Shown here: piece after piece, positions 6,838-31,479 of the stretch
Position numbering within the stretch: the stretch's first letter is position 1
Layout: each line of letters begins with the position of its first letter
From: Candidatus Eiseniibacteriota bacterium
GTDB taxonomy: Bacteria > Eisenbacteria > RBG-16-71-46
Reading direction: 5' to 3'
Assembly (NCBI GenBank): GCA_044222065.1
Contig: JBGAOA010000004.1
Span: 36,363-100,362, forward strand
DNA length: 64,000 bases
Program-made: the position numbers and the translations under genes
The notes under the pieces: generated by a model
The model's database searches: none
What the model saw: the letters and a program-made list of their open reading frames with translations, nothing else
What the model was told of the DNA's origin: nothing

Positions 6838-6871
6838 GCGGCGCCCGCGGCCCGATGCGCGCGATCGATCG

Positions 6872-7255
6872 TCACGCGGCCTGCTCGCCCGGATCCACGC
6901 CGAGCAGCACGAGCTTCTCGAGCAGGCCCTGCTTGTCGAACGGCTTCATCAGGTACTCGTTCGCTCCGGCCTCGAGCGCGATCACGACCTGCTCCATCTC
7001 GCTCTCGGTCGTGACCATCATCACGGGCACTTCGGCGAACTCGGCCTCGCCACGGATCGTGCGCAGGAACGCGCAGCCGTCCATCTCGGGCATGTTCCAG
7101 TCCACGAGCACGATGTCCACCGAGCGCAGCTTCCGGATCGTGACGAGCGCCTCCATGCCGCTCGCCGCCTCGTGCACTTCGAATCCCAGCTCCTTCAGGA
7201 ACTTGCCGATGATGCTGCGCATCGCGCGCGAATCGTCGATGACGAGCGCTCTCAT
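6872..7255 (-). CDS. cheY: Single-domain response regulator CheY
   Basis: IDDS, VDWNMP, MVTT, YLMKPF. Lies within the che operon. Confidence 0.92.
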   Translation of the reverse strand: MRALVIDDSRAMRSIIGKFLKELGFEVHEAASGMEALVTIRKLRSVDIVLVDWNMPEMDGCAFLRTIRGEAEFAEVPVMMVTTESEMEQVVIALEAGANEYLMKPFDKQGLLEKLVLLGVDPGEQAA

Positions 7256-7282
7256 GTCGGTCCTCCTCGCTCGACGCGCGGC

Positions 7283-8953: not shown

Positions 8954-9023
8954 GAGAACCTCTCCGGTGCGAGGGAGCGGGACGAGATCCCGGGGTGCGA
9001 GGGAACAAAGGGCGCGCGGACGG

Positions 9024-9455
9024 TCACGGCAGCGCCTCCGCGAGCAGACGATCGAGATCGAGCGCGAGCAGCAGTTCGCGCTCGAGCAGCGCGACGCCGC
9101 GCACGCGGCCGCGCAGGTGCTGGGGCACCGACGCGGGGCAGGGCTCGAGCGGCGCCTCGCCGGCATCGAACACGTCCTCCGCCGCGTCCACGACGAGCGT
9201 GAGCGCTTCCTCGCCGTGGCGGACGACGAGATGCGTGCGCTCGCCGTCGCCTTCGGCGTCGTCGAGTCCGAACACGCGGCGCAGGCTCACGGCCATGAGG
9301 ATCTCGCCGCGCAGGTTCAGCAGCCCGAGCACGCTCGCGGGCGCGAGCGGCACGGGCGTGACGTCGGCGGCGGTCACGACCTCGACCACGCGCTCGACCG
9401 GCACGCCGTAGCGGTTCGCGCCGACGCGGAACGTGCACAACGCGCCGGCGGTCAC
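9024..9455 (-). CDS. cheW: Chemotaxis coupling protein CheW
   Basis: CTFRVG...VTPVPLAP...GLLNLRGEI...LDLDRLL. GTGA overlap with the cheA stop. Confidence 0.92.
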
Positions 9456-14223: not shown

Positions 14224-14810
14224 GCGGCGTCCTCGCGCGGTTCTGCGGGCAGCGCCGTCGCGAGCCGCTCGCGCACGCCCGCGAGCCGGTGCATCACGTG
14301 GCCGACCTGCGTCTCGGTCAGGTTTCCGAGCGCGGCGTAGTGCAGCTGCTCGACGAGCCGGAGCGCGAGCAGCATCTGCTCATCGGGGCCGAGATCGGCG
14401 TACGCGCGCAGCACCGCGGGATCGAGCGTCGCGGCTTCGGGCGGGTACGACGGGTCGTTCCACGCCTCGCCGTTCGGGCGCACGCGCGCGGCGAACGACG
14501 GCTGGTCTCCCGCGCGCCGGCGCTGTCGCGTCACGGCGAGGTTGCGCGCGATGCGCGCGAGCCACGGGAAGAACGGCCGGCCGACCGGCAGGTGGCGCAG
14601 CCCGCGCCACGCGTGAAGGGCGGACTCGTGCGCGAGATTCGCCGCGGCCGAGTGCTCGCGCGTGAACGCGAAGCACAGCCGGTAGAGCGGACGCTGGTAC
14701 TCGCGCAGCAGCTCGAAGAACGCCGGACGGTCGCCCTTCTGCGCCAGCAGCACGAGACCCGCTTCTCGACCGGACTCCATCCAGGGTCCGGGGTTCACCG
14801 GAGCGTCCAT
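14220..14810 (-). CDS. ECF RNA polymerase sigma factor (divergent)
   Basis: AQKGDRPAFFELLREYQRPLY...PWLARIARN (region 2) and a C-terminal HTH-like region 4. Coupled to the ZAS protein. Confidence 0.8.
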   Translation of the reverse strand: MDAPVNPGPWMESGREAGLVLLAQKGDRPAFFELLREYQRPLYRLCFAFTREHSAAANLAHESALHAWRGLRHLPVGRPFFPWLARIARNLAVTRQRRRAGDQPSFAARVRPNGEAWNDPSYPPEAATLDPAVLRAYADLGPDEQMLLALRLVEQLHYAALGNLTETQVGHVMHRLAGVRERLATALPAEPREDAA

Positions 14811-14894
14811 ATTCCGGGTTCCTCTCCACGCCTTTCGCCGCACGCTCGAACACCCCACGGGCCGAGACCCGCGGGCGGAGACCTGCCGAGATCG

Positions 14895-15294: not shown

Positions 15295-18200
15295 CTATTG
15301 CACGCGGACCTGGAACGTCACGCTGCCCGAGCCGCCCGGAAGCAGCGTGCCCGAGAGCGTCCACTGGACGACGCCCGTTCCGCCCGGCGCCGGCGCCGCC
15401 GAGACCACGCAGCCCGTGAGTCCGCCGCCGAGCGCGCCGCAGCCCGCGCCGAGGAACACGGTGTAGGCGGGGGTCGCGTCCTGGACCACGATCGCGGACA
15501 GCGGCTCGGGCCCGGGATTCGTGTAGGTGATCGTGTAGGTGAGCGCATCGCCCGGCAGCGCGGACGCGCTGCTCACGGACTTCGTCAGCTGGAGTCCGCC
15601 CGAGGTCGCGATCGTCGTCTGATCGAGCAGCACCGCGTCGGCCGAGAGCGGCGGCGCCGCGCCCGAATAGTCGAAGCTCGCCCGCACCGTGAGCTGCTCG
15701 CCCGCGCCCGCGGTCGCGCCTGCCGGGCTCTGGTGGCGCACGATCACGCACACGCTCTGGCCCGCGAGCAGCGCGAGCGGCGCCGTGATCTCGGGCTCGC
15801 CGGGCTCGAGCACGCCGTCGCAGTCGAGATCGCGCCACACGCTCGCCGACCAGCCCGGGATCGCCGGCACCGGCGCGCCGCTCGTCGAGAAGGCGAGCGT
15901 CCCCGCCGAGCCGGCCGCGAACACGTGCGGGTAGTCGGCGAAGGCGCCGGGGAACACCGCGCGCGCGCCCGCGGCGGCGAAGCCGCTCGCGGGCACGTCG
16001 CCGAAGCCGAGACCCGAGTACACGACGCCGCTCGCGAGCGTGAACGCGAACGCGTCGGAGGCGCGCGCGTACGTGCCGCCCGTGGTGCCGGCGGCGCCGC
16101 CCGTCGAGAGCCATCCCGAAGGCGTCGATTCGGCGATCGTCACCGCGCCCGCGGCCGTGAACGGCAGCCACAGCGCGAAGCCGCCGGCCGGATCGGTGAG
16201 CACGCTGTCGCACGCGCCGCCCGGGCACGCGGCCGACAGCGCGCGCACGCGCGCGCCGGCGACGCCAGCTTCGGCCGGCTGCGCCACGCCGTCGTTCGCG
16301 CCGCCGCCGCCCGCGCCGTCGTCGCGGAACACGCGGCCTTCGACGCGGCTGCCGTGGTAGAAGCCGAAGTTCTGGTCCACGAGGTTCGCGGCCGACACCG
16401 TGACGGTCGTGCGCACGCCGCCCGCGGCCTCGGTGCCGATCCAGCCCGCGGGTGTGGCGGGCGTCACGTCGGAGGCGACGCCGTTGTCGTCGAGCACGAT
16501 CGAGTACGTGCCGGCGGCGACGAAGCCGAAGCCGTAGGCCCCGGTGATGCCGTCCACCGACACGATCTGCTGCGCCGAGCCGGGCAGCGCGTTCGACACG
16601 AGCTTCGCGAACAGCGGCTGGCCGGTGCCGTTCTCGCCCGCATCGCGCGTGAGGTCGTGGTTCGCGTCGTGGTACGCCCAGCCGCTCACCGACACGCCGC
16701 TCGTCACGGTCGCGAGCCCCGAGAACTCGCTCGTCGCCGAGGCGAGCGTCGCCGTCGCCGTGAGCCGCACGCCGGGCGAGACCGCGCCCGGGGTCGGAAC
16801 CGTGAAGCGGAAGCGGTTCGTGAGGTCGGTGCCCTGGTTCACACCGTTCACGAGCCCCGAATAGGTGCTCGCGCCGGCGTCGAGGTCCGAGGCCGAGCCT
16901 TCGACGAGCGTCGTCACGTACGTGCGGCCCTCGCCGAAGCCCGAGGGATCGGGCTCGGCCACGAACAGCTCGATCGTCGAGCCCGGCCGCGCCCAGCCCG
17001 TCACGGTGAAGCTGCCGTTCGCCGTGACCGCGGTTTCGAGCACGGGGAAGTTCGGCAGTCCGTTCGCGCCGGCGTCGGCGTCGGCGAGATCGTTGCGCGT
17101 GAAGAACGGGCTCGTGCCGCGCGCTTCGTTCTGGCCGCTCGCGAGCAGGTCGATGCCGATCTGCCCGCTCGCGACACCGCCGCCGAGCGGTGCGACGGTG
17201 CCGTTGTCGTACATCGAATTGCGCGTGAGCGTGCTCGTCGAAGCGGTCGGGCAGGCGAGCACGCCCGCGCCGACGTTCTGCGCGAGCACGCAGCGATCGA
17301 CGCGGTTGCCGGCGCCGTCGAGCCGCACGCCCGGCGTCTCGGACGTCGCGCCCGCGCCGAGCCCGTTGCGCGTCACGGTGAGGTTCGTGAACGTCGAGCC
17401 GCCGGTGCCGGTGCGCGTGTCGAGGCCCGGCCCCTCGTGCTGCGTCACGAGCGCGTTGCGCACGACGAGCGTCCCGCCCCCTTCGAGCGACACGCCGTCG
17501 CGCGTCGGGTTCCCGATCGCGTTCCCGCGGATCTCGGCGCCGTCCACCGTCCAGCCGTTCGAGCCCGCGACGAACGCGAGACCCGAGCCCGCGCCGAAGC
17601 CCGCGAGCACGTTCGTCACCGCGCCGTTGTCGCCGCCGACGGCGCGCAGGTGGTCGCCGCCCGAGCGCAGGCTCGCGCCGGGATCGGCGAACGCGCGCGC
17701 GGACGTGCCGAGCACGGCGGCCGTGAGCGCGAACGCGTTCGCCGTCGCGCCGACGCGCACGTCGGCGTTCGCGTCCGAGCCGGCGGCGTTCCCGAAGCCG
17801 AACACGGCGAGACGCGCGAGCACGACGTTCGCGGCCTGCACGTCGAGGCCGATCGCGACCGACAGGCTGTCGCGCAGTTCGACCTCGGGCGCGGCGACGG
17901 TCGCGAGCGCGACGCCGTCCACGCCGACGGTGCCGCCCGCGCCGAGCGCGCCGGGATTCGTGTCGCCGACGTTCGCGGTCTGCGTCGCGCCGTCCACGCG
18001 CACGGCCTCCGTGATCGCGGGCAGCGCGCTCGTCACGCGCACGGACACGACGCCGCTCACGAGCAGGTTCGCGAGTCCCGCGCGCAGGCCCGGGTGCGCG
18101 GCGCCGTCGGTGACGAGGAACAGCGCGTTCTCGGTGCCGGGCGTGAAGCCGGACTGGGCGAGCCCGGTGTTCGAGAGCGCGTTCGCGTTCACGAGGAACT

Positions 18201-20226
18201 GGCGCAGGCTGCCTGCGCCTGAGTCGTTCGCGTTCACGATCGTGTCGAAGTTGAAGCCGAAGTCGAGCCCGCCGAGGTCGGCCGTGCCCGCGAACGCGAC
18301 GGGCGCGAGCGACTGCGCGGTCGTCGTCGCGGTCGTGAGCGAGGCGAGCGTCTGGCTCGTCAGGTTCGCCGCGGCGTCCGCGCGCGCCGGGTTCTCGCCG
18401 CCGACGCGGTTCGCGTCCGCGACCGCCGCGCCGCCCGAGGCGTCGGTGCGGAACGTCTGCACGGGGAGCAGCGTCGCGACGGCGCCCGCGCGCGACGAGG
18501 TGACGGTCGCGTTCACGACGCGCACGGTGTAGCTGCCGCCGACGAAGCCGTCGAACACGTAGAGCCCCGCGGCATCCGTCGTGTCGGCCGCGAGCCACGC
18601 GCCCGAGGCGTCGTACAGCTCGACGCGCACGTTCGGCCGCGCGACGCCGCCCGACGCGGCGAGCGAGCGGCCCGCGCCGCCGCCGTAGTTCACGTCCTCG
18701 AACACGGTGCCCGTGAAGCGGTAGCCCGTCACCGTGACGTCGGTGCGCTGGACCCCGGGCGTCACGGCGTCGCCGTCCGAGAGCGCCGCGAGCGGTGTGC
18801 CCGACTGGGCGCCGATGCAGTCGAGCGCGGCCTGGTTCGACACGACGGTGCCGGTCGGCGCGGGCGCGTTCACCGTGACGCGGAAGCGCACGCTCGAGGA
18901 CGCCCCGGGCGCGATCGAGCCGCCGGCGCCGGCGGTCGCGCCGCTCCCGAGCCGGAACGTCACGCGCCGGCTCGCCGCGTCGTACTCGGCCTGGTCGTCG
19001 CCCGCGGCGTCGGACTTCGTGCCCGCGTTCGGGCCGCTCGCGACGACGAGGCTGCCGGCCACGTACGTCGCGTTCGCGGGCAGCGTGTCGCGCACGACGA
19101 CCGCGTTCGCGCCGTCGTTGCCGTCGTTGCGCAGCGTGACGAGGTACTCGAGCACGTCGCCCGGACGCACGACGCCGCCGTTCACGTCGGTCACGGTCTT
19201 CGTATAGCCGGTCGCGTTGAAGATCGGCTGGTACAGCTCGGTCGCGAACGTCAGCAGGCCCGGCAGGATGCGGTCGCCCGTCGAGACGACCGTGATCGTC
19301 GCGCTCGTCGCGCCGTTCGGCAGCACGCCGTTCGCGGTGATCAGATCCACGTCCCAGCCGAGCTGGTTCTGGTAGTTCGGGTTCTTCGCCGTGAAGTTGG
19401 CGCCGAACTGCGTGATCGTGCTGTTGAAGAAGTTGTCCACCGGGTTCAGCGCGTCGGACAGGTTCGTGCCGTTCAGCTGGAACGCGTCGCCGGTGAGGCC
19501 GCGGTCGCCCTCGCCCGCGACGACGCCGAGCCGCGTGTTCACGGCGCCCGCGGGCGGCGTGACGAAGCCGCTCGTCGTCGTCGTGACCGTCGCGCCCGGC
19601 TCGACGCGCGCGAAGCCGTCGAACACGACCAGGTTGCGCGGCGGCTGGCTCGCGAGCGCGTACACGACGACGAGCGCCCAGCCCGCGTGATGGTTCGCGC
19701 TGCCCGTGGTCGAGTAGACGTTCGCGCACCAGTACGTGCCGCTGCCGCCGGCCTGAACGAGCGCCGTCACGTCGCGGAAGCCCTGGTAGTAGGGCGACGA
19801 CACGTCGAGCTGCGTCGCGATGATGTTCTGGTAGCCGACGGCCGGGGTCGAGAAGCGGCACGTGTTGCGCGCGGCGTTCGTGGACTCGCCCTGCCAGTAG
19901 AGCCCGGCCCACAGGACCGTCGCGCCCGCGGGCACGGTGAGCGTCGCGCTGCTCGACGAGAACGTCGTGCCGTCGGCGTCGGCGTTCACGTACGTCATCG
20001 TGAAGTCGTTGTTGTCCACGTTGCCGCCCGTGCCGTTGCGGCCGTTCGTGCAGCCGCCGCCGCCGTTGCACGACAGGATCGTGTTTCCGACGAGCGTGAT
20101 GTCGCCGCTCTGGTTGGTCGTGAAGCGCGGCGTGAACGTGCGCACGACCTGAGCCGCCGCGGGCGCGGCGGCGAGCGCGAGCGCGAGCGATGCGAAGACG
20201 AGCGGGCGGAGCGTGCGCGCGCTCAT
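15295..20226 (-). CDS. Large secreted DUF11/SdrD-B/beta-helix surface protein (putative tip adhesin)
   Basis: Signal peptide ending PAAA-Q. Complete internal DUF11 (YTKTV...PGDVLEY...RDTLP...VSNQA). SdrD-B-like GxVFxDxN repeats. Beta-helix-like region. Truncated C-terminal DUF11 (LTKSV...QDATP...FQVRVQ*). Confidence 0.85.
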   Translation of the reverse strand: MSARTLRPLVFASLALALAAAPAAAQVVRTFTPRFTTNQSGDITLVGNTILSCNGGGGCTNGRNGTGGNVDNNDFTMTYVNADADGTTFSSSSATLTVPAGATVLWAGLYWQGESTNAARNTCRFSTPAVGYQNIIATQLDVSSPYYQGFRDVTALVQAGGSGTYWCANVYSTTGSANHHAGWALVVVYALASQPPRNLVVFDGFARVEPGATVTTTTSGFVTPPAGAVNTRLGVVAGEGDRGLTGDAFQLNGTNLSDALNPVDNFFNSTITQFGANFTAKNPNYQNQLGWDVDLITANGVLPNGATSATITVVSTGDRILPGLLTFATELYQPIFNATGYTKTVTDVNGGVVRPGDVLEYLVTLRNDGNDGANAVVVRDTLPANATYVAGSLVVASGPNAGTKSDAAGDDQAEYDAASRRVTFRLGSGATAGAGGSIAPGASSSVRFRVTVNAPAPTGTVVSNQAALDCIGAQSGTPLAALSDGDAVTPGVQRTDVTVTGYRFTGTVFEDVNYGGGAGRSLAASGGVARPNVRVELYDASGAWLAADTTDAAGLYVFDGFVGGSYTVRVVNATVTSSRAGAVATLLPVQTFRTDASGGAAVADANRVGGENPARADAAANLTSQTLASLTTATTTAQSLAPVAFAGTADLGGLDFGFNFDTIVNANDSGAGSLRQFLVNANALSNTGLAQSGFTPGTENALFLVTDGAAHPGLRAGLANLLVSGVVSVRVTSALPAITEAVRVDGATQTANVGDTNPGALGAGGTVGVDGVALATVAAPEVELRDSLSVAIGLDVQAANVVLARLAVFGFGNAAGSDANADVRVGATANAFALTAAVLGTSARAFADPGASLRSGGDHLRAVGGDNGAVTNVLAGFGAGSGLAFVAGSNGWTVDGAEIRGNAIGNPTRDGVSLEGGGTLVVRNALVTQHEGPGLDTRTGTGGSTFTNLTVTRNGLGAGATSETPGVRLDGAGNRVDRCVLAQNVGAGVLACPTASTSTLTRNSMYDNGTVAPLGGGVASGQIGIDLLASGQNEARGTSPFFTRNDLADADAGANGLPNFPVLETAVTANGSFTVTGWARPGSTIELFVAEPDPSGFGEGRTYVTTLVEGSASDLDAGASTYSGLVNGVNQGTDLTNRFRFTVPTPGAVSPGVRLTATATLASATSEFSGLATVTSGVSVSGWAYHDANHDLTRDAGENGTGQPLFAKLVSNALPGSAQQIVSVDGITGAYGFGFVAAGTYSIVLDDNGVASDVTPATPAGWIGTEAAGGVRTTVTVSAANLVDQNFGFYHGSRVEGRVFRDDGAGGGGANDGVAQPAEAGVAGARVRALSAACPGGACDSVLTDPAGGFALWLPFTAAGAVTIAESTPSGWLSTGGAAGTTGGTYARASDAFAFTLASGVVYSGLGFGDVPASGFAAAGARAVFPGAFADYPHVFAAGSAGTLAFSTSGAPVPAIPGWSASVWRDLDCDGVLEPGEPEITAPLALLAGQSVCVIVRHQSPAGATAGAGEQLTVRASFDYSGAAPPLSADAVLLDQTTIATSGGLQLTKSVSSASALPGDALTYTITYTNPGPEPLSAIVVQDATPAYTVFLGAGCGALGGGLTGCVVSAAPAPGGTGVVQWTLSGTLLPGGSGSVTFQVRVQ

Positions 20227-23200
20227 CGGCGGCCTCGCGCGGGGCGCAGCAGTTCGTCGTCGAAGCGCGCGCGGATGCGCAGGAAGCCGCCCTCGCGCGT
20301 CCAGTCGGTCCCTGCGAGTTCGTCGTCCTCGTAGCCGAAGCGGTTCCAGCCCGCGCTCAGCCACACGCCCGCGCCGAGCTGGCGTCCGATCTCGGCGCCG
20401 AGCGCGTCGCGGCGCTGGCGGAGCGTGCGGCCTACGACGGCGCTCGCGGCGACGCTCGCGTCCCAGTCGCGTCCGAACGCGATCGAGGCGCGCGCCGATC
20501 CGCGCTGCGCGCCCGTCACGCCGCGGAAGCCGTCGGCGCGTTCGCTCGCGACCTTGCCGGCCCAGCCGAGCGTGGCCTCGAGCGCGCCGCCGACCGGGCC
20601 CGTGCTCTGGAGCGCGAGCACGTGCGCGAGCCGGCGGTGCGGGAACGGCGAGCCGCCCGTGTCGCGGTCGTAGCGGAACTCGTAGCGCGTGAGCGCGTCC
20701 CACGCCTCGTGGGTCGCGTCGCGATACGCCGCGCCGAGCTGGAAGCGCAGCCGCGCGTGCGTGCCGCTCGCTCGCGCGTCCTCGAACGACAGCTGGTGGC
20801 GGCCGAGCATCGTCCACGACGAGTCCACGCGGCACGCCGCGGCCATCGTCGCGAGGAAGCCGTCCGAGGCGCGGCTCGTGCGCACTTCGACGCGCGTCGA
20901 GCCCTTCCAGCGTTCGCCCTCGGCGTACTCGATCGAGCCCGTCACGGCGGTCGCGGGCCCGGTCGTCGCGCCGGCGAGCGGGCTCACGCGCTCGAACGAC
21001 GTGCCGATGCGCATCACGCCGTCCACCGTCCACAGGTTCCGCAGGCCGAGCGCCGCCTCGCCCTCGCGGCCCGAGAGCCCGTCGCCGAGCCGGTACTCGC
21101 TGAAGACGCGCGTGTCGGGCCGCACGTCGGTGTCCACGCCGAGCACGGTCGAGAGCCGGCGCTGCGATTCGCGCAGCGCCCACTCGCCCGCGAGGCTCGA
21201 CACGAGTTCGTGACGCGCGTACACGCGGCCGCGCCCCGCGAGCCGGTACTCGCCGCCGACGGCGACGAGCCGGCGCGCGTCCATCACGCTCTGCTCGTAC
21301 TCGGCGAAGCCCGTGACGTCGGGCCGCCCGGGCGCCTGCGCCTGGAGCCGAGCGCGCAGCGCGTAGCTCGTCGGTTCCTCGAAGCCGGTGCGGCGGTCCT
21401 CGCCCGCGACGCGCACGCCGAGTTCGCCCTGCACGCCGCGCGCGAGCACGCGGTCCACGCCGACGAGCACGCCGCCGCGCTGGTCGCGCGCGAACGCGTC
21501 CGCGCTGTAGAGCGCCTCGAGCCGCAGGCTCGTGCGCGGGTCCACGCGCCCGGTGAGCCGCGCGCCCGCCTCGGTGCGGCCCGCGCCGAAGCCCGCGCCG
21601 GGATTGTCGAAGTCGGCGCCCGTGGCCGAGCCGAACGCGTAGCCCTGCACGGCGCCGCTCTCGTGATGCAGGTCGAAGCGCGCGCCGTCGCCGCGGCTGC
21701 CCCCGATGCGCTGCGTCACGGCCCACTCGGCCTCGAGCGTCGTCTTCGGCGAGAGCTTCGCCGCGATCGAGAGGCTGCGCAGCTCGGAGGGCTTCTCGGG
21801 ATCGTGGTCGTCCACGTACGAGCCGCCGGCCTCGAGCCGCGGCGTGAGCTTCACGCGCGCCTCGGCGCCCGACACCCAGAACGGCTCGCCGTCCGACTCC
21901 ACTTCATAGCCCACGCGGACGTAGACCGGGTTCAGGTCCGCGTCCACGCTCGGCACCGGCTGCTTGAAGACGATGCGGCCTTCGAACGGATCGATCTCGT
22001 AGTCGGTGAAGCGCGAGCGCGCGTTCGCGCTCAGCACGACCGCCGGCTGGTTGCGATCGCGCACGATCACCTCGACGCGCTCCGAGTTCTCGACGATCGG
22101 CGCGCCCGGCAGCACGTAGGGGCCCGAGACGCCGAGGCCGGGCAGCTCGTCCACGCGGCGGCGCGTGCGTTCGCGGCTCGTGAACGCGTCCACGCGCACG
22201 CGCTCGTCTTCATAGTGGTGCTGGACGCCCGTGAGGCTGCGCTGGTAGCCGGCGAGGCTGCGGACGCTGCCGCTGCCGCGCGTGACGAAGTCGCCGTACA
22301 GCAGCGAGGCCGCGCCCCGGTCGGCGCGCGCGTACAGCCGGCCGGTGGACTGCGCCTCGTAGCCGCGCACCGACGCGTCGCCGTAGACGGGGTAGAACGC
22401 CTCGGGCTGGATGTCGCGGAAGCGGCGCAGGCCCTCGGGCTTGTCGGTCGCGTAGCCGAGCGTGAGCAGCACGTCCTCGAACACGCGGCCCTTCACGAAC
22501 AGCGCGCCGCGCGCGACGGCGCTCGCGTCGCCGTCGCGGCGCTCGCTGCGGAACTGCGACGCCCACGACTCGAAGCCGGTCTCGGGGTGGAGCGGCGCGT
22601 TCGGCCCGCGGTGCAGCTTGCCGAACGACACCGTGCCTTCGAGCGAGCCGAGCGCGAGCAGCGGGCGGAGGTCGGGGCCGAAGTCCACGACGGATGCCGC
22701 GCGCAGCGCGCCTGCCGCGGCGCCGAGGCGCGCGCGCCCCGGCGTCGCCGGCGCGACGAGCGCGAGTTCGGCGAGTCCGCCCTCGACCGCAACCTGCACG
22801 CCCGGCGCGGCGGGATCGAGGTCGGGAGCGGTGAACGCGCCGAGCGTGGTCTCGAGCGTGACGATCGTGCGCGCGCCGACCGGGACGCCCTTCGCGTCGG
22901 TGAGGCGGATCGCGAGCGGCGCCGGCGTGCGGCCGTCGGCGATCGGGCGGCGCGGCGTCTCGAGCGCGACGTGCGCGAGCGGGCCGGGCGCCACGACGCG
23001 CAGCGCGACGCGGCCGACCGAACGCGGCGGCGCGACCTCGAGCACGTTCACGCCGGGCTCGAGTTCGACGCCGAGGTACTCCCACGCTTCGACGTTCGCG
23101 GCGTGCGCGACGACGCGGCGGCCGACGCGCGTCTCGGGCAGCGGCCGGCCGTTCACGCGCAGGCGGAGCGTCGTGCCGGGGCGCCCCTTCACGCGCACCG

Positions 23201-25650
23201 CGAGCTGCGTCACGCCGACCGTGTCGTAGTCGGCGAGGCCGACGAAGCCGAGGTCGAGCGACGGCGCGAGCTGCTCGAGCGAGGCGACCGGCAGCGCGTG
23301 GTGCGCGGACGACGGCGCCGAGGCGAGCGCGGCGTCGGCGAACAGCGGCAGGCGCGACTCGCCGCTCGTCACGGCCGACGTCGCCGCGCGCGCGCATCGC
23401 CCGGCAGGGTCGCGGGCTCGTCCATCGCGGACGGCCGCGCGAGGCCGCGCGCGAGTTCGCTGCCGAAGGCGCCCGGCGTCTCGCGGCGCGCGCGCCGCCG
23501 CGACGGCGGCGGTGTCGGCGCCGAAGTGCGTGCTGTCGGGCGCGAGCGGGAAGTCCGCGCGCGAGTTCTCCGCGGTGCAGGTCCACGAGCCTCAGGCCCG
23601 GCGTGCCGAGGTCGCGGCGGTCGCGCGCGACCGGCTTCGTCACCGCGGGCACCGTCGTGCGGTCGAGCTTCACCGCGGTCGCGCGCGGATCGAGGCCGTA
23701 CAGGCTGTACGCGCCGTCGCGGTCGGTGATCGCGAACGTGCCGTCCAGGTACAGCCGCACGCCCGGCACGCCGGGCTCGCCGGCCGAGCGGCGGCGGTCG
23801 CCGTCGAGGTCCACCCACACCGTGCCGACGAGCGTCGCTTCGTCGGCGAACGCGCCGCCCGTCACGACGACGCGCGCGGTCGCGACGTTCGACAACACGC
23901 TGTCCGCGACGGCCCAGGCGCGGTTGATGCCGTCGCCGTCGGGCGCGCCGGGGCTCACGCGCACGCGGTAGCGCAGCGTCGCGCTCGCGTGGGCGGGAAG
24001 CGCGCCGAAGTCGAACGTCAGCGACGGGCCGCGGCCGCCGGCGGGGTCCGCGAGCCGCGAGGTGTCGCGGCGCGCGGTGCCGGCGACGTACGCGAAGCCG
24101 AACGGCAGCCGGTCCTCGATTGCGACGCGGTCGAGCAGGCTGTCGGTGCGGCTCTCGATCCGGACCGCGAACTCGAGCTCGTCGCCGATCTCGACCGCGG
24201 CGCGCGAGGCGGACTTCTCGGCGAAGAGCCGCACCGCCGCGCGCGCGTCGAGCGGCACGTCCCAGCTCACGGGCGACAGCGCGGCGGTGGCGGCGAACGG
24301 CGCGCCGTAGGAGGCGACGGCGTCCACGCTGCGGAACGCCGGGAACGACGCGGCGGGAAGCCCCGAGGGGAAGCGGTGGGTCGCGGGCGGGAACACGTCG
24401 AGCCGGTACGTGCTCGGCGGCACGAGCGGGAACGCGTACGCGCCGCTCGCGTCGGTGACGAGTGCTGCCGGCGCGGGCGTCACGCCGTCCGCGGCGAACA
24501 CGCGCGCGGGGCCGCCCGCGAGCCCGCCGTTGCCGGCGCCCGTGACGTCGGTGAGCTGCACGCGCACGTTCGCGACCGGCAGCCCGGTGCGCGCGTCGAA
24601 CACGACGCCCGCCGGCGCGATCCACACCTCGGCCTCGGTGCGCGTCGCGCCGCAGCCGAGGAGCGTCGCGCGCACGGCGTCGTTGCGAGTGACCTCGACG
24701 ACGCCGGTGCGCGTCGCGGCGAACGTGCCGGTCGCGTCGAACGTCGGCACGTTCGGCTCGATGCGGAACCGGCCGGTCGAAGGGCCGGTCTCGGCCGCGC
24801 GGTAGGACTCGGAGTCGCCCGCGCGCGTCGTCGCGATCGAGATCGTCACGGTGTCGGCGAGCGCCGGGTCGAGGTCGCACTGCGGGGCGACCGCCTCGAG
24901 CCAGAGCGGCGCGCTGACCGTGCTCACGCGCGTCGGCGTCGCGTACGACGGCCCGGCGTAGAACGCGAGCGTCGGCGGCACGAGCGGCGGCGTGGCGGTG
25001 ACCGAGTCGCGGTTCGCGGCCGTGACCCCGGAGGCGAGCCCGGTCGCGCGCAGCTCGAGGCGCGCGAACGCGCCGTTCGGCGCGGTGAGCGGGCTCGTCG
25101 CCGAGACGATCAGCGCGACCGAGTCGCCGGGAGCGAGCGTGATCGTGCCGCCCGGCGCGAGCGCGACGTCGCCCGGGCCGACGAGGCCGTCGCGGTCGAC
25201 GTCGCGGGCGAGCGCGAGGCTCGCGAAGTCCCAGCCGTCGCCCGCGAGGTTCGCGAGGTCGAGCCGGTAGGTCGCCGTCGCGTTCCCGAGGTGCCGCAGC
25301 TCGTGCACGAACGCCGTCGTCGCGCCGGCGGGCGCGATCGCGCCCTGGTCGCGCGTGAGCGACAGCGCCTCGATCGCCGAGACGATCGTGCGCACGGGGT
25401 TCGAGTCCACGAGCAGCGCGCCCGAACCCGCGGTCGTGGCCGTCGCGCGGGCGACGTTGTCGATCGGCGTTCCCGGTGCCGGGCCCGCCTGCGCGCGCGC
25501 GTATACAAAAACCAGCGTCCCGATCGCGACGCCGAGGCGCACGGCGGCCGCGCGCGCGACGCTCGCGAGCGAGCGCGCGGCGAGACCGGCCGCGTTCGCG
25601 AACGGCGAACGCGGGTGCGGAGACCCCGGATGGCGACGGGACGTGGGCAC
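20223..25650 (-). CDS. Large DUF11/SdrD-B protein with C-terminal outer-membrane beta-barrel-like region; interrupted by about 3 frameshifts at 23380-23560
   Basis: N-terminal part in ORF 22210..25785, middle in 23369..24880 (FGSELARG...DARAR), C-terminal part in 20223..23372 with amphipathic strands ending GGFLRIRARF. Start codon uncertain. Confidence 0.75.
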
Positions 25651-25842
25651 GGTGCGAACTCCCGGCGTCCCGCTCCGGCGCGCCAGCTTCTGTCTGAGAC
25701 GTCCGATTGCTGCGTTACTCGCTCGCTTCTCGCTGCGGAGCATCTTGCAGATGCGCCTCGCTCGTCGCTTGCTCGTGCCTTGCACTCGGACTTCTCAGAC
25801 AGAACCCAGAGTCGCGCCGGATGCGGAACACCCAGAGGGGGA

Positions 25843-25872
25843 CGCGGCGGGCCCGAAGGGAGGCCCGCCGCG
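25843..25872 (-). terminator. GC-rich hairpin just after the major DUF11 gene (terminator or mRNA stabiliser)
   Basis: CGCGGCGGGCC-N8-GGCCCGCCGCG, a perfect 11-bp stem. No clear U-tract. Confidence 0.5.
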
Positions 25873-25881
25873 CGGAGCCGG

Positions 25882-28494
25882 CTAGGGATCGATGCGGACG
25901 CCGAACTCGACCACGGTCGTGTTGCCCGGTCCCAGCGTCGGGATCGTGACCGTGATCGTTCCGGCAGCGCCCGCGGCCGGAGCGGCCGTGACGCTGCCGG
26001 CCCCGCTCACGACCGCGGCGGGGACCGTCGCCGAGTAGGTCGTGAAGGGCGGCGTCGCATCGCTCACCACCACGTTCGTGACACTCGACGTGCCGACGTT
26101 CGTGATCGTGAGCCGGTAGCGCAGGCAGTTGCCGGGCACCTGCGTCAGGTTGACCGTCGTGTACGCGCCGTCGGCCACGCCGTCGCAGGTGTTGTCGAGC
26201 ACCTGCTCCTTGAGGACCGTGACCTGGCCGTTGATGACGGTGCTGTTGTCCGTCGCGGTCACGATCGGCGGCGCGATGCTCACGTAGCCGAGGTTCGACG
26301 TCGAGGCGTCGAACGTCGTGACGTTGACCTGGCCGAGCGGGGCGCCGGCCGGAGCGAACACCTGCACGAACAGGCGGATCGAGGTGAGCGGAGCGATGCC
26401 GCCGATCGTCGAGAGGTCGTTGATCGCGACGTCGCCGGCGTCGAACACGCCGCTGTTGTTCGTATCGTGGTAGATCACCGACGACCATCCGGCCTGGTTG
26501 TCGGCGGTCGTGAGCGCCACGAGGCTGCCGGTGCCGTCGCCTTCGACGACGTTCCCGTTGTTGAACAGCAGGTGCGTGTACACGACCGTGCCGCCCGGGA
26601 CGATCTGCGCGTTGTTGTTGGGCACGAGCGTGAGCTGGCGCAGCGGGTTCACGGTCACGGCGTCGTGGATGCGGTCCGCGGCGCCCGTCGTCGGCGACAG
26701 CGAGCGGAAGTACACGTCCGTCGTGCCCGGCGTCGCGGCCGCGGGGACCGTGACGTCGGCGTACACGAGCACGCCGCTCCACGGACCGACGGCGACCGTG
26801 CCCGCGATCGGGGTGAGCGTCGCGTCGAGGAACTGCACGCTCCAGCCCGCCGGCAGCGTGAGGGCGCCGAACGAGCCGTCCGTGCTGGCCGCGAGGTTGT
26901 AGGCGTCCGCGACGCCGGCGGTGTTGTTGACGTACAGCGTGAAGCGCGTCGTCGTGCCGGGGTTCGTCGCGTTCGTGACGACCGCGCCCGCTTCGGGGCC
27001 GGCGCCGACGCCGAGTCCGCCGGGGAACGCGGCGTTGTTCGTGAGGTCCACGCGGTTCGGACGGATGCCGTTCAGGATGTCGGTCGCAGTGGCGTTCGTA
27101 CCGTTCGTGATCGAGGTCGCGGTCTTCTGGACCTGGAACCCGCCACCCGTGGCGTTCGGCGGCAACTGCACGCGCAGCACGACGGTGGTCGTGGCGCCTG
27201 CGGCGACCGGGCCCGTGTCGGGCGTGCCGTTGAAGTTCGTGTCCGTGAGCGGCGTCACGCCGTCCGCCTGGTAGAGCGCGTACGTCGTGCCCGGCGGGAA
27301 CGTGGACACGCCGATCGTCACGTCGAAGCGGTCGGTGCCGTTGCCGTTGTTGACGAGCGTGTTCGCGTACGACAGCGCCGCGCCCTGGTTCACCGAGTCG
27401 ATCGTCGTGCCGGTGAACGTGAAGGCCACCGACTGGAGCACCGTGAACGGCGCCTGGTTCGTGAAGAACGGACCGGCGTTCGCCGCGCCGTCGAAGTAGG
27501 CGTAGCGCGACGAGTTGTTGAGGACCTGCGGCGCGAGGCCCGGATCCACGTTCACACCGAACGTGATCGTTCCGGACGAGCCCGCCGGCACCTGGTTCAG
27601 GATCGCGGTGACGGTGCGGCTCGGCCCGTCGTAGATCCACTGCACCGTGTTCGGCGACACGCCCTGCGCGTCGGTCGAATCGGCGTCGGTGAGCACGACG
27701 GCGCCCGTCGCGCTCCAGCGGCCGCTGCCCGGCACGTACGTCATGCCGACCGGGACGACGTCGGTGAAGCGCACGCCGGTCGCCGTCGCGTTTCCGCTGT
27801 TCGTGTACGTCATCGTGTACGTGTACGGGCCGCTCGGCGAGTTGCCCGACGGCACGTTGATGCCCTTCGTCACGGCCACGACGGCGTTGCCCGTGACGTT
27901 CACGCGGTCGGTGTTGAACGCGGTCTGGGCGTTGTCGAACACGCTCGTCGCGGTGATACGCAGCTGCGCGAAGTCGCCGCCCACCTGCGTGCCGGGCACG
28001 GCGGCCACGACCACGAAGTGGAACACGGCGCCCGCCGCGATCGGACCGGTGCTCGCGATCGGCGTGAAGTTGTCGGGCACGCCGTTGCCGTCCGCGTCGG
28101 GGAGGATCTGGATGCTGGCGAAGTCGAAGTTGTCGCCTCCGAGATCCGCGGCGGTGAGGTTGAAGTCGTCCGTGCCGTTGCCCGTGTTGGTCAGCACGTG
28201 CGGGAACACGGCCGAGCCGCCCGGGGCGGACGGCAGGGTTCCGTCGGCGGTCAGCGTGAAGCTCGCCACCTGGAGCACGATCGTGGTGACGAGGTTCGAG
28301 GGCACGCTGCGGCTCGTGCCCGAGGCGTCGAGGTACGTCGCGGACGCCTGATTACCGATCGAGGTGCCCGCGGGCGGCGCGGCGTGCGCGGCCGTGGCCG
28401 TCCACGCGAACGCCGCGGCCGTCACGAGCGCGAGGACGCCGTGACGCAACGTCGCGAGCCGGCGGAACGCGCCGGTCGTGTGCGAGGGAGACAT
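25882..28494 (-). CDS. Secreted DUF11 repeat protein (putative major shaft subunit)
   Basis: AAGGAG RBS. Signal peptide ending AHA. Mature N-terminus APPAGTSIGNQASATY. Repeated NxGN-x-D Ig modules. C-terminal truncated DUF11 ending FGVRIDP*. Confidence 0.88.
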   Translation of the reverse strand: MSPSHTTGAFRRLATLRHGVLALVTAAAFAWTATAAHAAPPAGTSIGNQASATYLDASGTSRSVPSNLVTTIVLQVASFTLTADGTLPSAPGGSAVFPHVLTNTGNGTDDFNLTAADLGGDNFDFASIQILPDADGNGVPDNFTPIASTGPIAAGAVFHFVVVAAVPGTQVGGDFAQLRITATSVFDNAQTAFNTDRVNVTGNAVVAVTKGINVPSGNSPSGPYTYTMTYTNSGNATATGVRFTDVVPVGMTYVPGSGRWSATGAVVLTDADSTDAQGVSPNTVQWIYDGPSRTVTAILNQVPAGSSGTITFGVNVDPGLAPQVLNNSSRYAYFDGAANAGPFFTNQAPFTVLQSVAFTFTGTTIDSVNQGAALSYANTLVNNGNGTDRFDVTIGVSTFPPGTTYALYQADGVTPLTDTNFNGTPDTGPVAAGATTTVVLRVQLPPNATGGGFQVQKTATSITNGTNATATDILNGIRPNRVDLTNNAAFPGGLGVGAGPEAGAVVTNATNPGTTTRFTLYVNNTAGVADAYNLAASTDGSFGALTLPAGWSVQFLDATLTPIAGTVAVGPWSGVLVYADVTVPAAATPGTTDVYFRSLSPTTGAADRIHDAVTVNPLRQLTLVPNNNAQIVPGGTVVYTHLLFNNGNVVEGDGTGSLVALTTADNQAGWSSVIYHDTNNSGVFDAGDVAINDLSTIGGIAPLTSIRLFVQVFAPAGAPLGQVNVTTFDASTSNLGYVSIAPPIVTATDNSTVINGQVTVLKEQVLDNTCDGVADGAYTTVNLTQVPGNCLRYRLTITNVGTSSVTNVVVSDATPPFTTYSATVPAAVVSGAGSVTAAPAAGAAGTITVTIPTLGPGNTTVVEFGVRIDP

Positions 28495-28584
28495 GTCCAC
28501 ACTCCTTGTGCTTGCGAGGTGCGGACACGGAAAACGGCGAACGTGGGCGCCGGTTCCGTGCCGCGTCCGAGACGGGATCCGGAA

Positions 28585-29091
28585 CTAGCGCGTGAGCGCG
28601 GCGACGGCGATCGGCGCGACGCGGACGCGCGCCTTCACGACGCGGTCGCTCTTCGCTTCGAGCGCGGGGATGGACCAGCGCAGCCAGCGGTACTCGGAGG
28701 CAGGAACCTCTCGGACCGCGGTGCGCCCGTCGGCGAGCCGCACCTTGCGCTTGAGCGGCACGGCCTCGAACGTCTTGCCGTCGAGGCTCGCGAGCACCGG
28801 CGCGGGCGAAGCCGAGCCGGCGAGGTACTCCATGCCCTGCGGCACCGGAAGGGTGGCCGCGAGCTGGCGCACGCGCGCGCCGCTCGAGTTCGTGTACGTC
28901 GCGCGGTATTCGAGGACGTCGCCCGGATGGGCCTGGTCCCCGGGGACGAGCGTCTCCTTGCCGTTCGCGTTCGTCTGCACCCGGTGCGCCGTGAGCTGCA
29001 CCGAGACGTCGCCCTCGGCCCACGCCGCCGAAGCGAACGTGACGAGCGCGAGCAGCGCGACCGCGAGGCAGCGCTTCATCGACTGATGCAT
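28585..29091 (-). CDS. Small secreted single DUF11-like domain protein (putative chaperone)
   Basis: AAGGAG RBS. Signal peptide ending AWA. PGDVLEYRATYTN...LPVPQGMEYLAGS...LRW...ARVRV. Confidence 0.85.
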   Translation of the reverse strand: MHQSMKRCLAVALLALVTFASAAWAEGDVSVQLTAHRVQTNANGKETLVPGDQAHPGDVLEYRATYTNSSGARVRQLAATLPVPQGMEYLAGSASPAPVLASLDGKTFEAVPLKRKVRLADGRTAVREVPASEYRWLRWSIPALEAKSDRVVKARVRVAPIAVAALTR

Positions 29092-29424: not shown

Positions 29425-31479
29425 ATGACGCGACGCGATCGGGATCGGAAGGCGGCGGCGCCCGCTCGGCGACCGCGCCACGCGCAGCCGCGCGGGCGCT
29501 GGCTCACGCGCGAGCGCGCGTGGATGCTCGCGCTGGTCGCGGCCGCGTTCCTCGTGCGGCTGCCCGGGATCGGGGCCGGCCTGCCGGCGATCTACGAGGA
29601 GGCCTATCCCTACAAGCGCGCGTGGATGATGTGGGGTTTCGATCGCGGCGGCGGCTTCGATCCGAACCCGCACTTCTTCCGCTACCCGAGCCTCGTCCTT
29701 TACCTGCAGCTCGCGGGGCAGGCGCTCACGCGCGCGTGGCTCGACCTGACGGGCGCCGCGCGCTCGGTCCTGGAGCTGCAGGCGCTCGCGATCGCCGATC
29801 CGACGCCGTTCGTGCTCGTGGGCCGCGGGCTCATCGCGCTCGCGGGGGCGCTGGCCGCGTGGACGACGTGGCGCGCGGCGCGCGCGGCGAAGCTCGGTGC
29901 GGGCGCGTGGGTCGCGGGCGTCGTCGTGGCGATGAACGCGGCGCTGATCGCGAAGTCGAAGCTCATCGAGGTGGACGTGCCGCTCGCGCTGTTCGTCGCG
30001 TGGGCGCTCGAACGCGCGATCGCGCTGCGCGAATCGCGCACGATCCGGAACGCCGCGCTCGCGGGCGTCGCCGTGGGGCTCGCGACCTCGGCGAAGTACA
30101 CGGGGGCGGCGGCGTTCCTCGCGCCGCTGCTCGCGTGCTTCGTTCCGCGCCGCGCGGCCGCCGACGGCGCGCGACGCCGGGACCTCGCCCCGCTCGCGGC
30201 GCTCGGCGTCGCGCTCCTGGCCGCCGCGCTCGCGTTCGCGCTCACGTCGCCTTACGTGCTGCTCGATGCGAAGTCCGCGCTCGCCGACCTCGCGGCCGAG
30301 CGCCAGCACCAGCAGTTGGGGCACTTCGGCGATGCGGGCAACGCGGCGCTCTACTTCGTGCGCTCCTGGTTCACCGACGTGGCCGGCTGGCCGCTCGCCC
30401 TCGCGGCGCTCGCGGGGCTGCTCCTCGCCGCGTCACGCGCGATCGGCAACTGGGCGTGGGTCGCCTTCGGCGTGCCGGTCGGGTTCGTCGCGGCGCTCTC
30501 GAGCACGCGCGTCGAGGCGGACCGTTACCTGCTGCCGCTCGTGCCGGTCGCCGCCGTGTACTCCGGCGCGCTCGTGGACGCGCTGCTCGGCACGCCGCGG
30601 CTCGCGGCGCTCGCGCCGCGCTCGCGCGTCCTGCTCGCGGCCGCGTGTGCGGCCGTGCTCGCCGCGCCGTCCGTGCCCGCGCTCGCGAAGAGCCTCGCGG
30701 GCCGCGGGACCGATCCGCGTACCGAGGCGAAGCGCTGGATCGAATCACACGTGCCGTCGGGTTCGATGATCGTGAGCGAGGCGTACGGACCGCCGCTCGT
30801 CGGCGCGGTGGACCTGATCGAGTACGACGAGTCGCTGCGGCGCGCGCTCGTCGCGAAGGGCTACGGCCGGCTCGTCTACGCGCGCCAGACGCTGCCTTCG
30901 TTCCAGGTGCTGCCGCGGCGCTCGGCGCGCTTCTACGACGCGCGACTGTGGCGCGACGCCGACGCGTTCGTCGTCACCGAGTCCGTACGCTCGCGCTATG
31001 CCGCCGAGCCCGATTCGTTCGGGCCGCAGCTCGCGTTCTACGACACGATCGCCGCGCGCTTCCCCGTGAAGCAGGAGTTCCGCGCGCCCGACGGCTCGCT
31101 CGTGCTCACGCTCCACTGGCACGGACGCGCGGACGACCGCTTCGCCGACCGCGAGCCCGCAGGTCCGGACTCGACGCTGCTCGCGCTCGGGAACGCGACG
31201 GGCGGCGAGGCGTACACGTGCTTCACGTGGGGCGCGAACTACGAGGCGTTCCGCAAGTGGGCGGCCGCCTCGCGCGCCTACCAGATGTGCCTGCGCTATC
31301 CCGCCACGCCCGAGCGCTACCACACGCAGTCGGTCGTGCGGCTCGCGAGCCTGCTCCTGAAGGCGGGACGCCCGGGCGATGCGGCGGGGTTCCTCGACGA
31401 GGTGATCGCGCGGCCCGTGGACGAGGGCGAGGCGGCCGCGCTCGCGCGGATGCGCGCGCAGATCGCGGCGCCGCGCTGA
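29425..31479 (+). CDS. GT-C fold membrane glycosyltransferase (PMT/ArnT-like) with C-terminal TPR-like helices
   Basis: Multiple TM segments. YEE acidic loop motif, PHFFRYPSL, GLATSAKY, RYLLPLVP. Confidence 0.8.
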   Translation: MTRRDRDRKAAAPARRPRHAQPRGRWLTRERAWMLALVAAAFLVRLPGIGAGLPAIYEEAYPYKRAWMMWGFDRGGGFDPNPHFFRYPSLVLYLQLAGQALTRAWLDLTGAARSVLELQALAIADPTPFVLVGRGLIALAGALAAWTTWRAARAAKLGAGAWVAGVVVAMNAALIAKSKLIEVDVPLALFVAWALERAIALRESRTIRNAALAGVAVGLATSAKYTGAAAFLAPLLACFVPRRAAADGARRRDLAPLAALGVALLAAALAFALTSPYVLLDAKSALADLAAERQHQQLGHFGDAGNAALYFVRSWFTDVAGWPLALAALAGLLLAASRAIGNWAWVAFGVPVGFVAALSSTRVEADRYLLPLVPVAAVYSGALVDALLGTPRLAALAPRSRVLLAAACAAVLAAPSVPALAKSLAGRGTDPRTEAKRWIESHVPSGSMIVSEAYGPPLVGAVDLIEYDESLRRALVAKGYGRLVYARQTLPSFQVLPRRSARFYDARLWRDADAFVVTESVRSRYAAEPDSFGPQLAFYDTIAARFPVKQEFRAPDGSLVLTLHWHGRADDRFADREPAGPDSTLLALGNATGGEAYTCFTWGANYEAFRKWAAASRAYQMCLRYPATPERYHTQSVVRLASLLLKAGRPGDAAGFLDEVIARPVDEGEAAALARMRAQIAAPR

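Follow-up and report, generated by a model that had tools for sequence, protein, structure and literature searches.

We analyzed four consecutive genes on the minus strand of a 64,000-nucleotide stretch of DNA (hereafter the window) from an uncultured wastewater bacterium of the Candidatus Eiseniibacteriota (GenBank assembly GCA_044222065.1, contig JBGAOA010000004.1, positions 36,363 to 100,362 of the forward strand). The G+C content of the window is about 73%, and the relatives of the window proteins carry the labels Candidatus Eisenbacteria or Eiseniibacteriota. An earlier note on this stretch had read the four genes as an operon for a head-to-tail fibre, in which terminal DUF11 domains without their last strands are completed by the N-terminal strands of another protein. 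The genes are referred to here, in their order, as P1-P2-P3-P4, and each product has an N-terminal signal peptide. A terminal domain that lacks strands is called an acceptor, and an N-terminal segment corresponding to those strands a donor hairpin.

Organization of the operon

The genes and their parts are located as follows (window coordinates; aa, amino acids).

28585..29091, minus strand: P1, 168 aa by translation; a secreted protein with a single DUF11-like domain
25882..28494, minus strand: P2, 870 aa; signal peptide, donor hairpin and about six beta-sandwich domains, the last of which is a truncated DUF11/CLIPPER domain
28267..28377, minus strand: donor hairpin of P2, residues 40-76, directly after the AHA cleavage motif; invariant N48 and N67
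25885..26232, minus strand: terminal acceptor domain of P2, residues 755-870; strands 1-7 only; invariant K762 and D812
20223..25650, minus strand: P3, putative base subunit of about 1800 aa; start codon uncertain, out of frame in the assembly; in order, a signal peptide, a donor hairpin, an immunoglobulin (Ig)-like array (one complete DUF11 plus SdrD_B), two Big-like domains and a giant barrel
25369..25485, minus strand: donor hairpin of P3, GPAPGTPIDNVA...DSNPVRTIV; donor profile match, E 1.4e-7
23378..23557, minus strand: linker of P3 with the frame change; poorly conserved
20262..22658, minus strand: predicted barrel module of P3, residues 239-1037 of the C-terminal part; about 40 long beta-strands (AlphaFold2 (AF2), DSSP)
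15295..20226, minus strand: P4, tip-type protein of 1643 aa, the start of which overlaps the P3 stop; signal peptide, N-terminal region without a known family, complete isopeptide-type DUF11, SdrD_B, right-handed beta-helix and truncated DUF11
15298..15657, minus strand: terminal acceptor domain of P4; conserved Lys (LQLTK) and Asp (VVQDATP)

The families matched by the operon proteins in Pfam and NCBIfam are DUF11/TIGR01451, SdrD_B, beta-helix and the RrgB-type isopeptide domain. The PF01345 scores of P2, P3 and P4 (29.5, 30.2 and 49.9 bits) are all above the curated cut-off of 24.6. Sortase, PapD-like, usher and fimbrial families were all unmatched by the five proteins searched against Pfam and NCBIfam, in line with the remark of the earlier note that no sortase or usher/chaperone gene is recognisable.

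The split domain

The C-terminal domains of P2 and P4 stop early. P2 ends with ...VVEFGVRIDP and P4 with ...VTFQVRVQ, each followed by the stop codon. The Pfam DUF11 match at the end of P4 covers profile positions 2-84 of 114 and reaches the last residue of the protein, while that at the end of P2 covers positions 10-79; the internal DUF11 of P3 spans positions 5-106. Both P2 and P4 stop right after the fifth-to-seventh strand block of the DUF11/CLIPPER domain, and their end domains align to each other at 98.8% in hhalign.

The mature N-termini of P2 (after AHA, APPAGTSIGNQASATY...SNLVTTIV) and P3 (after AQA, GPAPGTPIDNVARATA...SNPVRTIV) are segments of the type AP(P)AGT.IGN.A.A.Y...SN.V..IV. 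In an hhalign comparison of 32 hairpins with 32 complete internal domains, hairpin columns 6-42 corresponded to the last 37 domain columns (88.4%, E 2.8e-6). A Pfam scan of the 41-aa hairpins by themselves gave no match. When the hairpin profiles were searched against the whole 4.2-Mb assembly (94% complete), only the N-termini of P2 and P3 were found (E 9e-13 and 1.4e-7), the next best hit having an E-value of 1.7. In the same assembly, the ends of P2 and P4 are the only DUF11-like domains within one residue of a stop, and all the others lie more than 500 residues away. The genome thus tallies two donors, two stop-adjacent acceptors and one P1.

The sequence features named in the earlier note were all found in the translations where it had placed them, and the distribution it had drawn up (P2 with donor and acceptor, P3 with donor and barrel, P4 with acceptor only, P1 as a lone acceptor) is conserved in relatives. 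At the level of sequence and profile, these results show that the end domains of P2 and P4 are without their last two strands and that the mature N-termini of P2 and P3 correspond to those strands.

DUF11 domains also occur in an unsplit arrangement elsewhere in the same genome (G000). On its contig C102, an open frame of at least 3297 aa (5443-10737, minus strand) contains 14 complete tandem DUF11 repeats with the usual Lys, Asp and Asn, none of which is close to a stop, and the product has the appearance of a conventional fibrillar adhesin.

Residues for a probable isopeptide bond

CLIPPER is the name given to DUF11 as a CnaA-like domain, in which an isopeptide bond joins Lys715 and Asn806 with Asp748 nearby (PDB 9IFR), according to the available text of PMC12617251. 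Sequence searches of the PDB with the end-domain profile and with the internal domain of P4 did not reach 9IFR. The triad was therefore mapped by spacing, against the residue numbers in the available text of PMC12617251 and the canonical repeats of the genome itself. The motifs obtained in this way are Lys in strand 1 (..l.v.K), Asp in v.D.(l/t)P and Asn in v.N.A.

In the complete internal domain of P2, these residues are K210, D245 and N327, each present in at least 90% of the orthologues. In the split terminal domain of P2, K762 and D812 are invariant, and the hairpin contributes the invariant N48, which aligns with N327, and N67. The full Lys/Asp/Asn set was found, at sequence level, in the complete internal copies and not within the terminal domains of P2 and P4. 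The same division holds in distant loci. Lys and Asp were each present in 54 of 54 P2-type acceptors and in 44 of 44 P4-type acceptors, and Asn was present in 70 of 71 and 100 of 105 donors.

The earlier note had overlooked that the split domain is the CLIPPER isopeptide domain, with Lys and Asp staying in the acceptor and Asn going with the hairpin. An acceptor that keeps both catalytic residues and is without only the Asn that a partner would supply argues for ligation between two proteins. The joints of the fibre are therefore probably covalent, formed by a self-catalysed Lys-Asn bond.

Predicted structure of P2 and predicted docking of the hairpin

The AF2 monomer model of P2 (predicted local distance difference test score (pLDDT) 86.8, predicted template modelling score (pTM) 0.42) is all beta and forms a string of about six beta-sandwich domains. 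Foldseek with the whole P2 retrieved tandem Ig arrays only. P2 has 2135 relatives, and the best 120 of these 2135 are all 846-894 aa long.

The earlier note had proposed multimer prediction as a check. We co-folded P2 745-870 and P2 40-205, using for each of the two pieces an alignment of 63 orthologues. The pair of tail and head scored 0.88 (runs 0.89, 0.87 and 0.88), against 0.09 for the best of three controls. The mark used for this score is reached by 116 of 157 solved complexes and by 2 of 215 mismatched pairs, counts that are only rough here owing to the custom alignment. Contacts agreed by at least 92% between the runs, and the pLDDT of the partner was at least 92. In the predicted interface, hairpin residues 40-76 face residues 755-764, 780-797, 803-818 and 866-869, and K762, D812, N48 and N67 are all included. 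The prediction supports the view that the tail of P2 and a hairpin would make up one domain.

It is worth considering that the four products may not assemble at all. They could act independently as secreted or surface proteins; the short end domains would then fold unaided, and the N-terminal motif would serve otherwise, for example as a sorting signal for the barrel protein. A conserved motif right behind a signal peptide could indeed be a targeting signal, and the hairpin profiles found no match to internal domain tails. However, the end domains, from which the isopeptide Asn is missing, keep Lys and Asp in 98 of 98 cases, which would be senseless if the domain stayed incomplete, and the hairpin aligns with the missing strands and is predicted to dock there. 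We regard an absence of assembly as very improbable.

Conservation of the donor/acceptor pattern

Matches were found in 20 of 41 related genomes, a count that includes G000 and the unpublished G026. Eleven loci were fetched from these related genomes, G026 contributing nothing. The gene order P1-P2-P3-P4 is kept in the 11 loci. The end of P2 (...[FV][GS][VIL][RH]I.(F)P) and the hairpin right after the P2 cleavage site were each present in 11 of 11, and the end of P4 (...[FY].V.V(Q/E/D/ETP)) in 8 of 8 complete copies.

A genome scan found the system in at least 595 species records across many phyla. The cultured carriers include Variovorax, Curvibacter, Xenophilus, Aquincola, Acinetobacter nectaris and Alkanindiges; further carriers are metagenome-assembled genomes of Geobacteraceae, Nitrospira, Acidobacteriota, Verrucomicrobiota and Abditibacteriaceae. 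We kept 80 loci for a survey, counted on the 52 with at least 9 kb upstream and tallied the features of P3 by frame. A P1-like gene was present in all 52. P2 is intact in 47, with a donor at its N-terminus and an acceptor that occupies its last residues. In at least three of the five loci without an intact P2 (L044, L080 and L087), a donor-bearing and an acceptor-bearing open reading frame (ORF) adjoin. Among 48 loci in which P3 has its passenger in frame, a donor match was found in 39 and a terminal acceptor in none. A downstream P4-like ORF ending in an acceptor was found in 35 of the 52, none of which has a donor (0/35). Ten more loci have a long downstream ORF that runs off the locus and was not assigned to P4. 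The neighbourhood survey suggested by the earlier note thus found the donor/acceptor pattern to be kept, both in the 11 related loci and in the 52 loci from many phyla.

These counts bear on the possibility that the hairpin of P2 completes the last domain of its own chain. P2 would then be a circular permutation closed into a loop, and only P3 and P4 would pair in trans. The hairpin has a pLDDT of 84-90 in the monomer model of P2, which means that it is docked somewhere, and the complex prediction cannot separate cis from trans. It should be added that monomer predictions of strand-complemented pilins often self-complement. Trans pairing must nevertheless exist in the system, since P3 never has an acceptor (0/48) and P4 never has a donor (0/35). 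Moreover, about six rigid-looking tandem domains would need to bend into a ring, and the hairpin continues straight into domain 1, as at any inter-domain junction of a tandem array. Closure in cis seems improbable to us.

Another possible interpretation is an adhesin of fixed length made of three pieces. One P3 would take one P2 and then P4, or would take P4 directly, and P2 would not join to P2. The split domains would then have the sole function of putting a long adhesin together from parts exported separately. The sequences give no stoichiometry, and the choice of partner is open, since the acceptors of P2 and P4 are related (98.8%), as are the donors of P2 and P3. In addition, the complex test passes close cousins of the true partner, and P2, with its six or so domains, is already a long rod by itself. 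Against this stands the fact that P2 holds both halves of the split domain, the P2-P2 pair scoring 0.88 against 0.09. Nothing in the sequences blocks the self-joining of P2, and a separate protein with donor plus acceptor is kept in 47 of 52 loci, as a repeating unit requires. We consider the three-piece adhesin unlikely, although it deserves more weight than closure in cis.

Several loci differ from the window operon in their gene content. The space between P3 and P4 is occupied, in several loci of proteobacteria and Geobacteraceae, by one or two genes of the OmpA family (peptidoglycan-binding), each of about 380 aa (L021:13267-14433, L076:13212-14375, L057:13141-14268 and L030:13093-15344). 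Some of the products seemingly have a lipoprotein-type signal, and the window operon has no such gene. In Alkanindiges illinoisensis (L089:1-3492), an ORF ending in an acceptor (...VRFCVQVP) is located upstream of P1 and not downstream of P3. For Acinetobacter nectaris (L084), 10 kb of downstream sequence yielded no P4-like ORF.

The predicted barrel module of P3

The C-terminal part of P3 (1049 aa, alignment of 66) was modelled by AF2 with a pLDDT of 77.8 and a pTM of 0.63. In this model, as assigned by DSSP, two Big-like domains (42-232) are followed by about 40 long strands (239-1037), interrupted at about 412-480 by a small beta domain. The top match in VIA-align was the translocation domain of FimD (Z 14.6, root-mean-square deviation 6.9, 318 aligned). 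Many outer-membrane barrels, including SprA (12.8) and SlpA (11.8), lie within about 1-2 Z of FimD, with many at Z 12-13.5. Since FimD is nearly tied with many barrels, only the assignment as a large outer-membrane barrel is safe. Foldseek gave LptD, MtrB and SlpA at low template modelling (TM) scores, and the profile of the module matched porin weakly (E 0.0024). The barrel module is not covered by any Pfam or NCBIfam family. The beta-barrel that the earlier note had assigned to P3 is hence predicted to be a very large outer-membrane barrel, on the basis of the AF2 strands and VIA-align.

The C-terminal module of P3 has relatives in 2834 representative clusters at E 0.001 or below and in 1235 at 1e-30, and it nearly always ends proteins of 1500-2500 aa. 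Of ten clusters looked up, one carried a label, the generic 'uncharacterized repeat protein (TIGR01451 family)'. When 129 long representatives of the P3 family were screened with a strict text pattern, the hairpin was recognised in 77; many of the misses show variants or have no N-terminus.

The reading frame of P3

The location given for P3 in the earlier note, 20223..25650, stands, but the gene is not a single open frame in this assembly. The interval is 5428 bases long, and its N- and C-terminal parts are in different frames. The N-terminal part runs to about 23557 and the C-terminal part, in another frame, from 23372. The alignment of intact relatives covers 25527-23557 in one frame and 23378-20256 in a second; between these two halves, conserved residues lie in a third frame. 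Of the 10 related loci containing both parts, 8 have P3 as a single frame.

Four public sludge or wastewater runs have near-identical contigs, in which bases are inserted relative to the window (+1 near 23382-23384, +2 at 23490 and +2 at 23555). All four also carry in-frame insertions of +6 (23253) and +3 (23741). This comparison of the linker is of low depth, with one or two contigs per run. The frame break may be an assembly fault or a real lesion of the strain.

DNA near-identical to 22900-24100 was present in 20 public runs from 13 studies, labelled mostly as activated sludge, wastewater, bioreactor and biofilm metagenomes.

The tip-type protein P4

The profile scan found no donor hairpin in P4. 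Its internal domain matches TIGR04226, the RrgB-type isopeptide domain. Residues 26-340 match no Pfam family. The Atlas neighbours of this N-terminal region are 'cell surface proteins' of Bacillota (0.96), and DUF3344 is a weak lead for it (15-16% of members, scores below 0.9).

In a close relative (L001:9068-11896), the P4 orthologue is without query residues of about 569-1147, including the beta-helix, but both of its ends are retained, so that the central part of the tip protein seems to be exchangeable.

The small acceptor P1

The last strand of P1 is the one at which the truncated acceptor domains also stop. P1 aligns with the end domain of P4 at 95% in hhalign (E 3e-8), with the ends in register. 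TIGR01451 matches weakly at residues 53-95, and the Atlas neighbours of P1 are small TIGR01451/DUF11 proteins. Among 57 relatives of P1, the position of the catalytic Asp is occupied by Ala, Pro, Val or Gly in all 57 (Asp in 0/57), and that of the strand-1 Lys by Leu in 53. P1 of the window operon itself has Ala at the Asp position and no strand-1 Lys. The lack of both Lys and Asp argues for a receiver that does not bond covalently.

P1 might thus bind hairpins in the periplasm in a reversible way, or serve as their cap; of all inferences in the present analysis, this one is the weakest. In the earlier note P1 was the "chaperone" of the system. That it is a lone acceptor holds, while the chaperone role is inference only, and its polarity would be opposite to that of PapD/FimC, as P1 would receive strands and give none.

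Neighbouring genes and signals

A divergent gene upstream of the operon (29602-31479, plus strand) encodes a membrane protein with a PMT-type (protein mannosyltransferase-like) match of 22.6 bits, the Pfam cut-off being 22.7. Just downstream of P4 lies a gene resembling those of extracytoplasmic function (ECF)-type sigma factors (14220-14858, minus strand; Sigma70_r2), followed by an ORF of 811 aa with a C-terminal CarboxypepD_reg domain (11788-14223, minus strand). These two may be a regulatory pair. A promoter scan of the region found no sites. Terminator-like sites numbered 7 in the region against 4.8 (standard deviation 2.5) in shuffles, which is not above chance. One such site, a hairpin followed by a T run, is located between P1 and P2 (28535-28552, minus strand), and it should be read with this regional count in mind.

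Comparison with known systems

The chaperone-usher pili (FimH/PapG tip, FimA/PapA rod, PapH terminator, FimC/PapD chaperone, FimD/PapC usher) resemble the proposed system in that the N-terminal segment of one subunit fills the gap in an incomplete Ig-like domain of the subunit before it. In both, the tip is an adhesin with an acceptor only, the rod has donor and acceptor, and the last subunit gives but cannot receive. The operon also includes an outer-membrane barrel in both (a predicted one here), and among structural matches to the P3 barrel FimD ranks first, though tied with other barrels. The differences are considerable. Two strands would be donated here instead of one, by subunits that are multi-domain rods of 870-1800 aa. 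The barrel has a predicted 40 or so strands and forms part of the terminating subunit itself, the links between subunits are probably covalent, and the small accessory protein would receive strands and not give one. In P1-P4, no Pfam or NCBIfam match to the PapD-like periplasmic chaperone (PF00345/PF02753) was found, P1 being DUF11-like. The fimbrial pilins that are without one strand (PF00419) were not matched either, and the subunits are DUF11 or Ig-array proteins without two strands. The usher (PF00577, a 24-strand barrel with a plug) had no Pfam match; the Z of 14.6 for FimD is within about 1 Z of unrelated barrels, and about 40 strands are predicted in P3.

CLIPPER (PDB 9IFR) is of the same domain family, and the complete internal copies in the operon have the same Lys, Asp and Asn as those given in the available text of PMC12617251. 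In contrast, the terminal copies are cut after the strand before Asn, so that the bond, if made, would join two proteins. Split copies are not mentioned in the available text of PMC12617251, where CLIPPER is treated solely as intramolecular.

BsaA of Clostridium perfringens, a member of the TasA family, resembles the proposed joint. According to the available text of bioRxiv 10.1101/2024.11.04.621531, its N-terminal segment completes the sheet of the next monomer in an exchange-and-lock manner, and a donor Asn bonds a receiver Lys with the help of a receiver acid (N-E-K), which is the same division of the triad. BsaA, however, is a Gram-positive matrix protein of another fold, with one donated strand, a single small subunit and neither tip and base proteins nor an outer-membrane barrel. 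A likeness is also found in the archaeal thread of Sulfolobus acidocaldarius (Saci_0406), which, as far as the available text of PMC9715654 goes, is a head-to-tail donor-strand fibre with proposed covalent links and without a known chaperone or usher. In that source the bond joins Asn to the N-terminal amino group two subunits along; this archaeal thread consists of one small subunit and has no homology with the proteins described here.

Isopeptide domains have also been split by design, and bacteria build covalent fibres by other routes. SpyTag/SpyCatcher is an engineered split of CnaB2, in which a strand with one reactive residue self-ligates to the rest of the isopeptide domain. That pair is man-made and CnaB-type, whereas the present split would be natural, CnaA-type and used for building a fibre. 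The sortase pili of Gram-positives are likewise covalent fibres with tip, shaft and base, composed of Ig-like subunits that bear isopeptides, and the internal domain of P4 matches TIGR04226; here, however, the operon proteins include no sortase family and no LPXTG (the ends being RIDP and VRVQ), and an outer membrane is present. A classical autotransporter (type Va) differs in that PF03797, a 12-strand barrel, was not matched and the P3 module has about 800 aa and about 40 strands. In contrast to type V pili (FimA/Mfa1), with their proteolysed lipoprotein precursors and C-terminal donor strand, the signal peptides here are of the AxA type without a lipobox Cys and the donors are N-terminal.

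The fil operon of Acinetobacter (FilA-FilF) was considered and rejected. In the available text of PMC4751259 it has six genes of 289, 279, 398, 556, 430 and 641 aa, including a C39 peptidase-like one, against 168, 870, about 1800 and 1643 aa here. The papers retrieved for DUF11 together with donor strands concern DUF1102 tafi and F-ENA, which are other systems, and the papers on Litorilinea GhlA and on Synechococcus DUF11 describe no split domains. The literature searched, in which few subscription journals are covered, yielded no account of split DUF11 domains or of such an operon.

Proposed assembly of the fibre

We consider it rather probable that the operon encodes a donor-hairpin-complemented and probably self-ligating fibre, with P4 as the tip, P2 as the shaft, P3 as the base and P1 as a non-covalent keeper of hairpins. 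Such a surface fibre of a diderm bacterium would be self-contained, with joints in which two proteins together make up one domain. Judging from their signal peptides, P1-P4 would all be exported by Sec. P4 would be the distal adhesin, its end domain taking up the hairpin of a P2, and each further P2 would place its hairpin in the end domain of the P2 before it. The hairpin of P3, which has no acceptor, would close the chain. The barrel of P3, with its predicted 40 or so strands, would hold the fibre in the outer membrane and may also be the exit pore. Each joint would be sealed by a bond between the Lys of the acceptor and the Asn of the hairpin, with the acceptor Asp as the catalytic residue, as the conservation and the solved CLIPPER structure suggest. 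P1 would hold the hairpins reversibly in the periplasm or cap them. The polarity of the fibre would be that of chaperone-usher pili, with the donor toward the tip. The head-to-tail reading of the earlier note is therefore retained as far as the bookkeeping of the split, the predicted docking of the hairpin and the barrel are concerned, but not in a classical "chaperone" role for P1.

Several observations weigh against the proposed fibre. The homology between hairpin and domain comes from a single hhalign result at 88%; the hairpin profiles do not match the internal domain tails, and when the genome was searched with a narrow profile made from the internal tail of P2, that tail was the single hit and the hairpins were missed. 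The fold prediction of the P2 pair cannot tell trans from cis. It may also merely recognise two pieces of a solved fold, and close cousins of the true partner also pass. The bonding Asn is ambiguous, since homology points to N48, while among the contacts of K762 in the model those of lowest error are to S66 and N67. P1 aligns weakly with the end domain of P2 (hhalign 4.6%, E 0.009). P3 is out of frame in this assembly, and the closure of its barrel and the size of the pore would follow from a model with a pLDDT of 77.8. No donor match was found in 9 of 48 P3 relatives, and no P4 in 7 of 52 loci. Finally, no export route or energy source for the fibre was recognised in the analysis.

The principle of the proposed assembly has precedents in the chaperone-usher pili, the archaeal thread and BsaA, and the system belongs to none of these families. 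Possibly, though we say so with less assurance than for the fibre itself, it represents an undescribed and widespread class of Gram-negative fibres. In this class, a naturally split CnaA-type domain would be completed and then covalently ligated, a single-use barrel of about 40 strands would export, plug and anchor the fibre, and a catalytically dead P1 would keep the hairpins.

Should this be correct, a modular pilus with covalent joints would be made by many diderm bacteria without any pilus machinery known so far, and a new class would be added to the short list of bacterial fibre assembly pathways. The split domain would be a natural self-ligating pair of tag and catcher, comparable to SpyTag/SpyCatcher, with P1 as an inert competitor. 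P3 would be among the largest single-chain outer-membrane barrels, and a candidate exit for folded multi-domain proteins.

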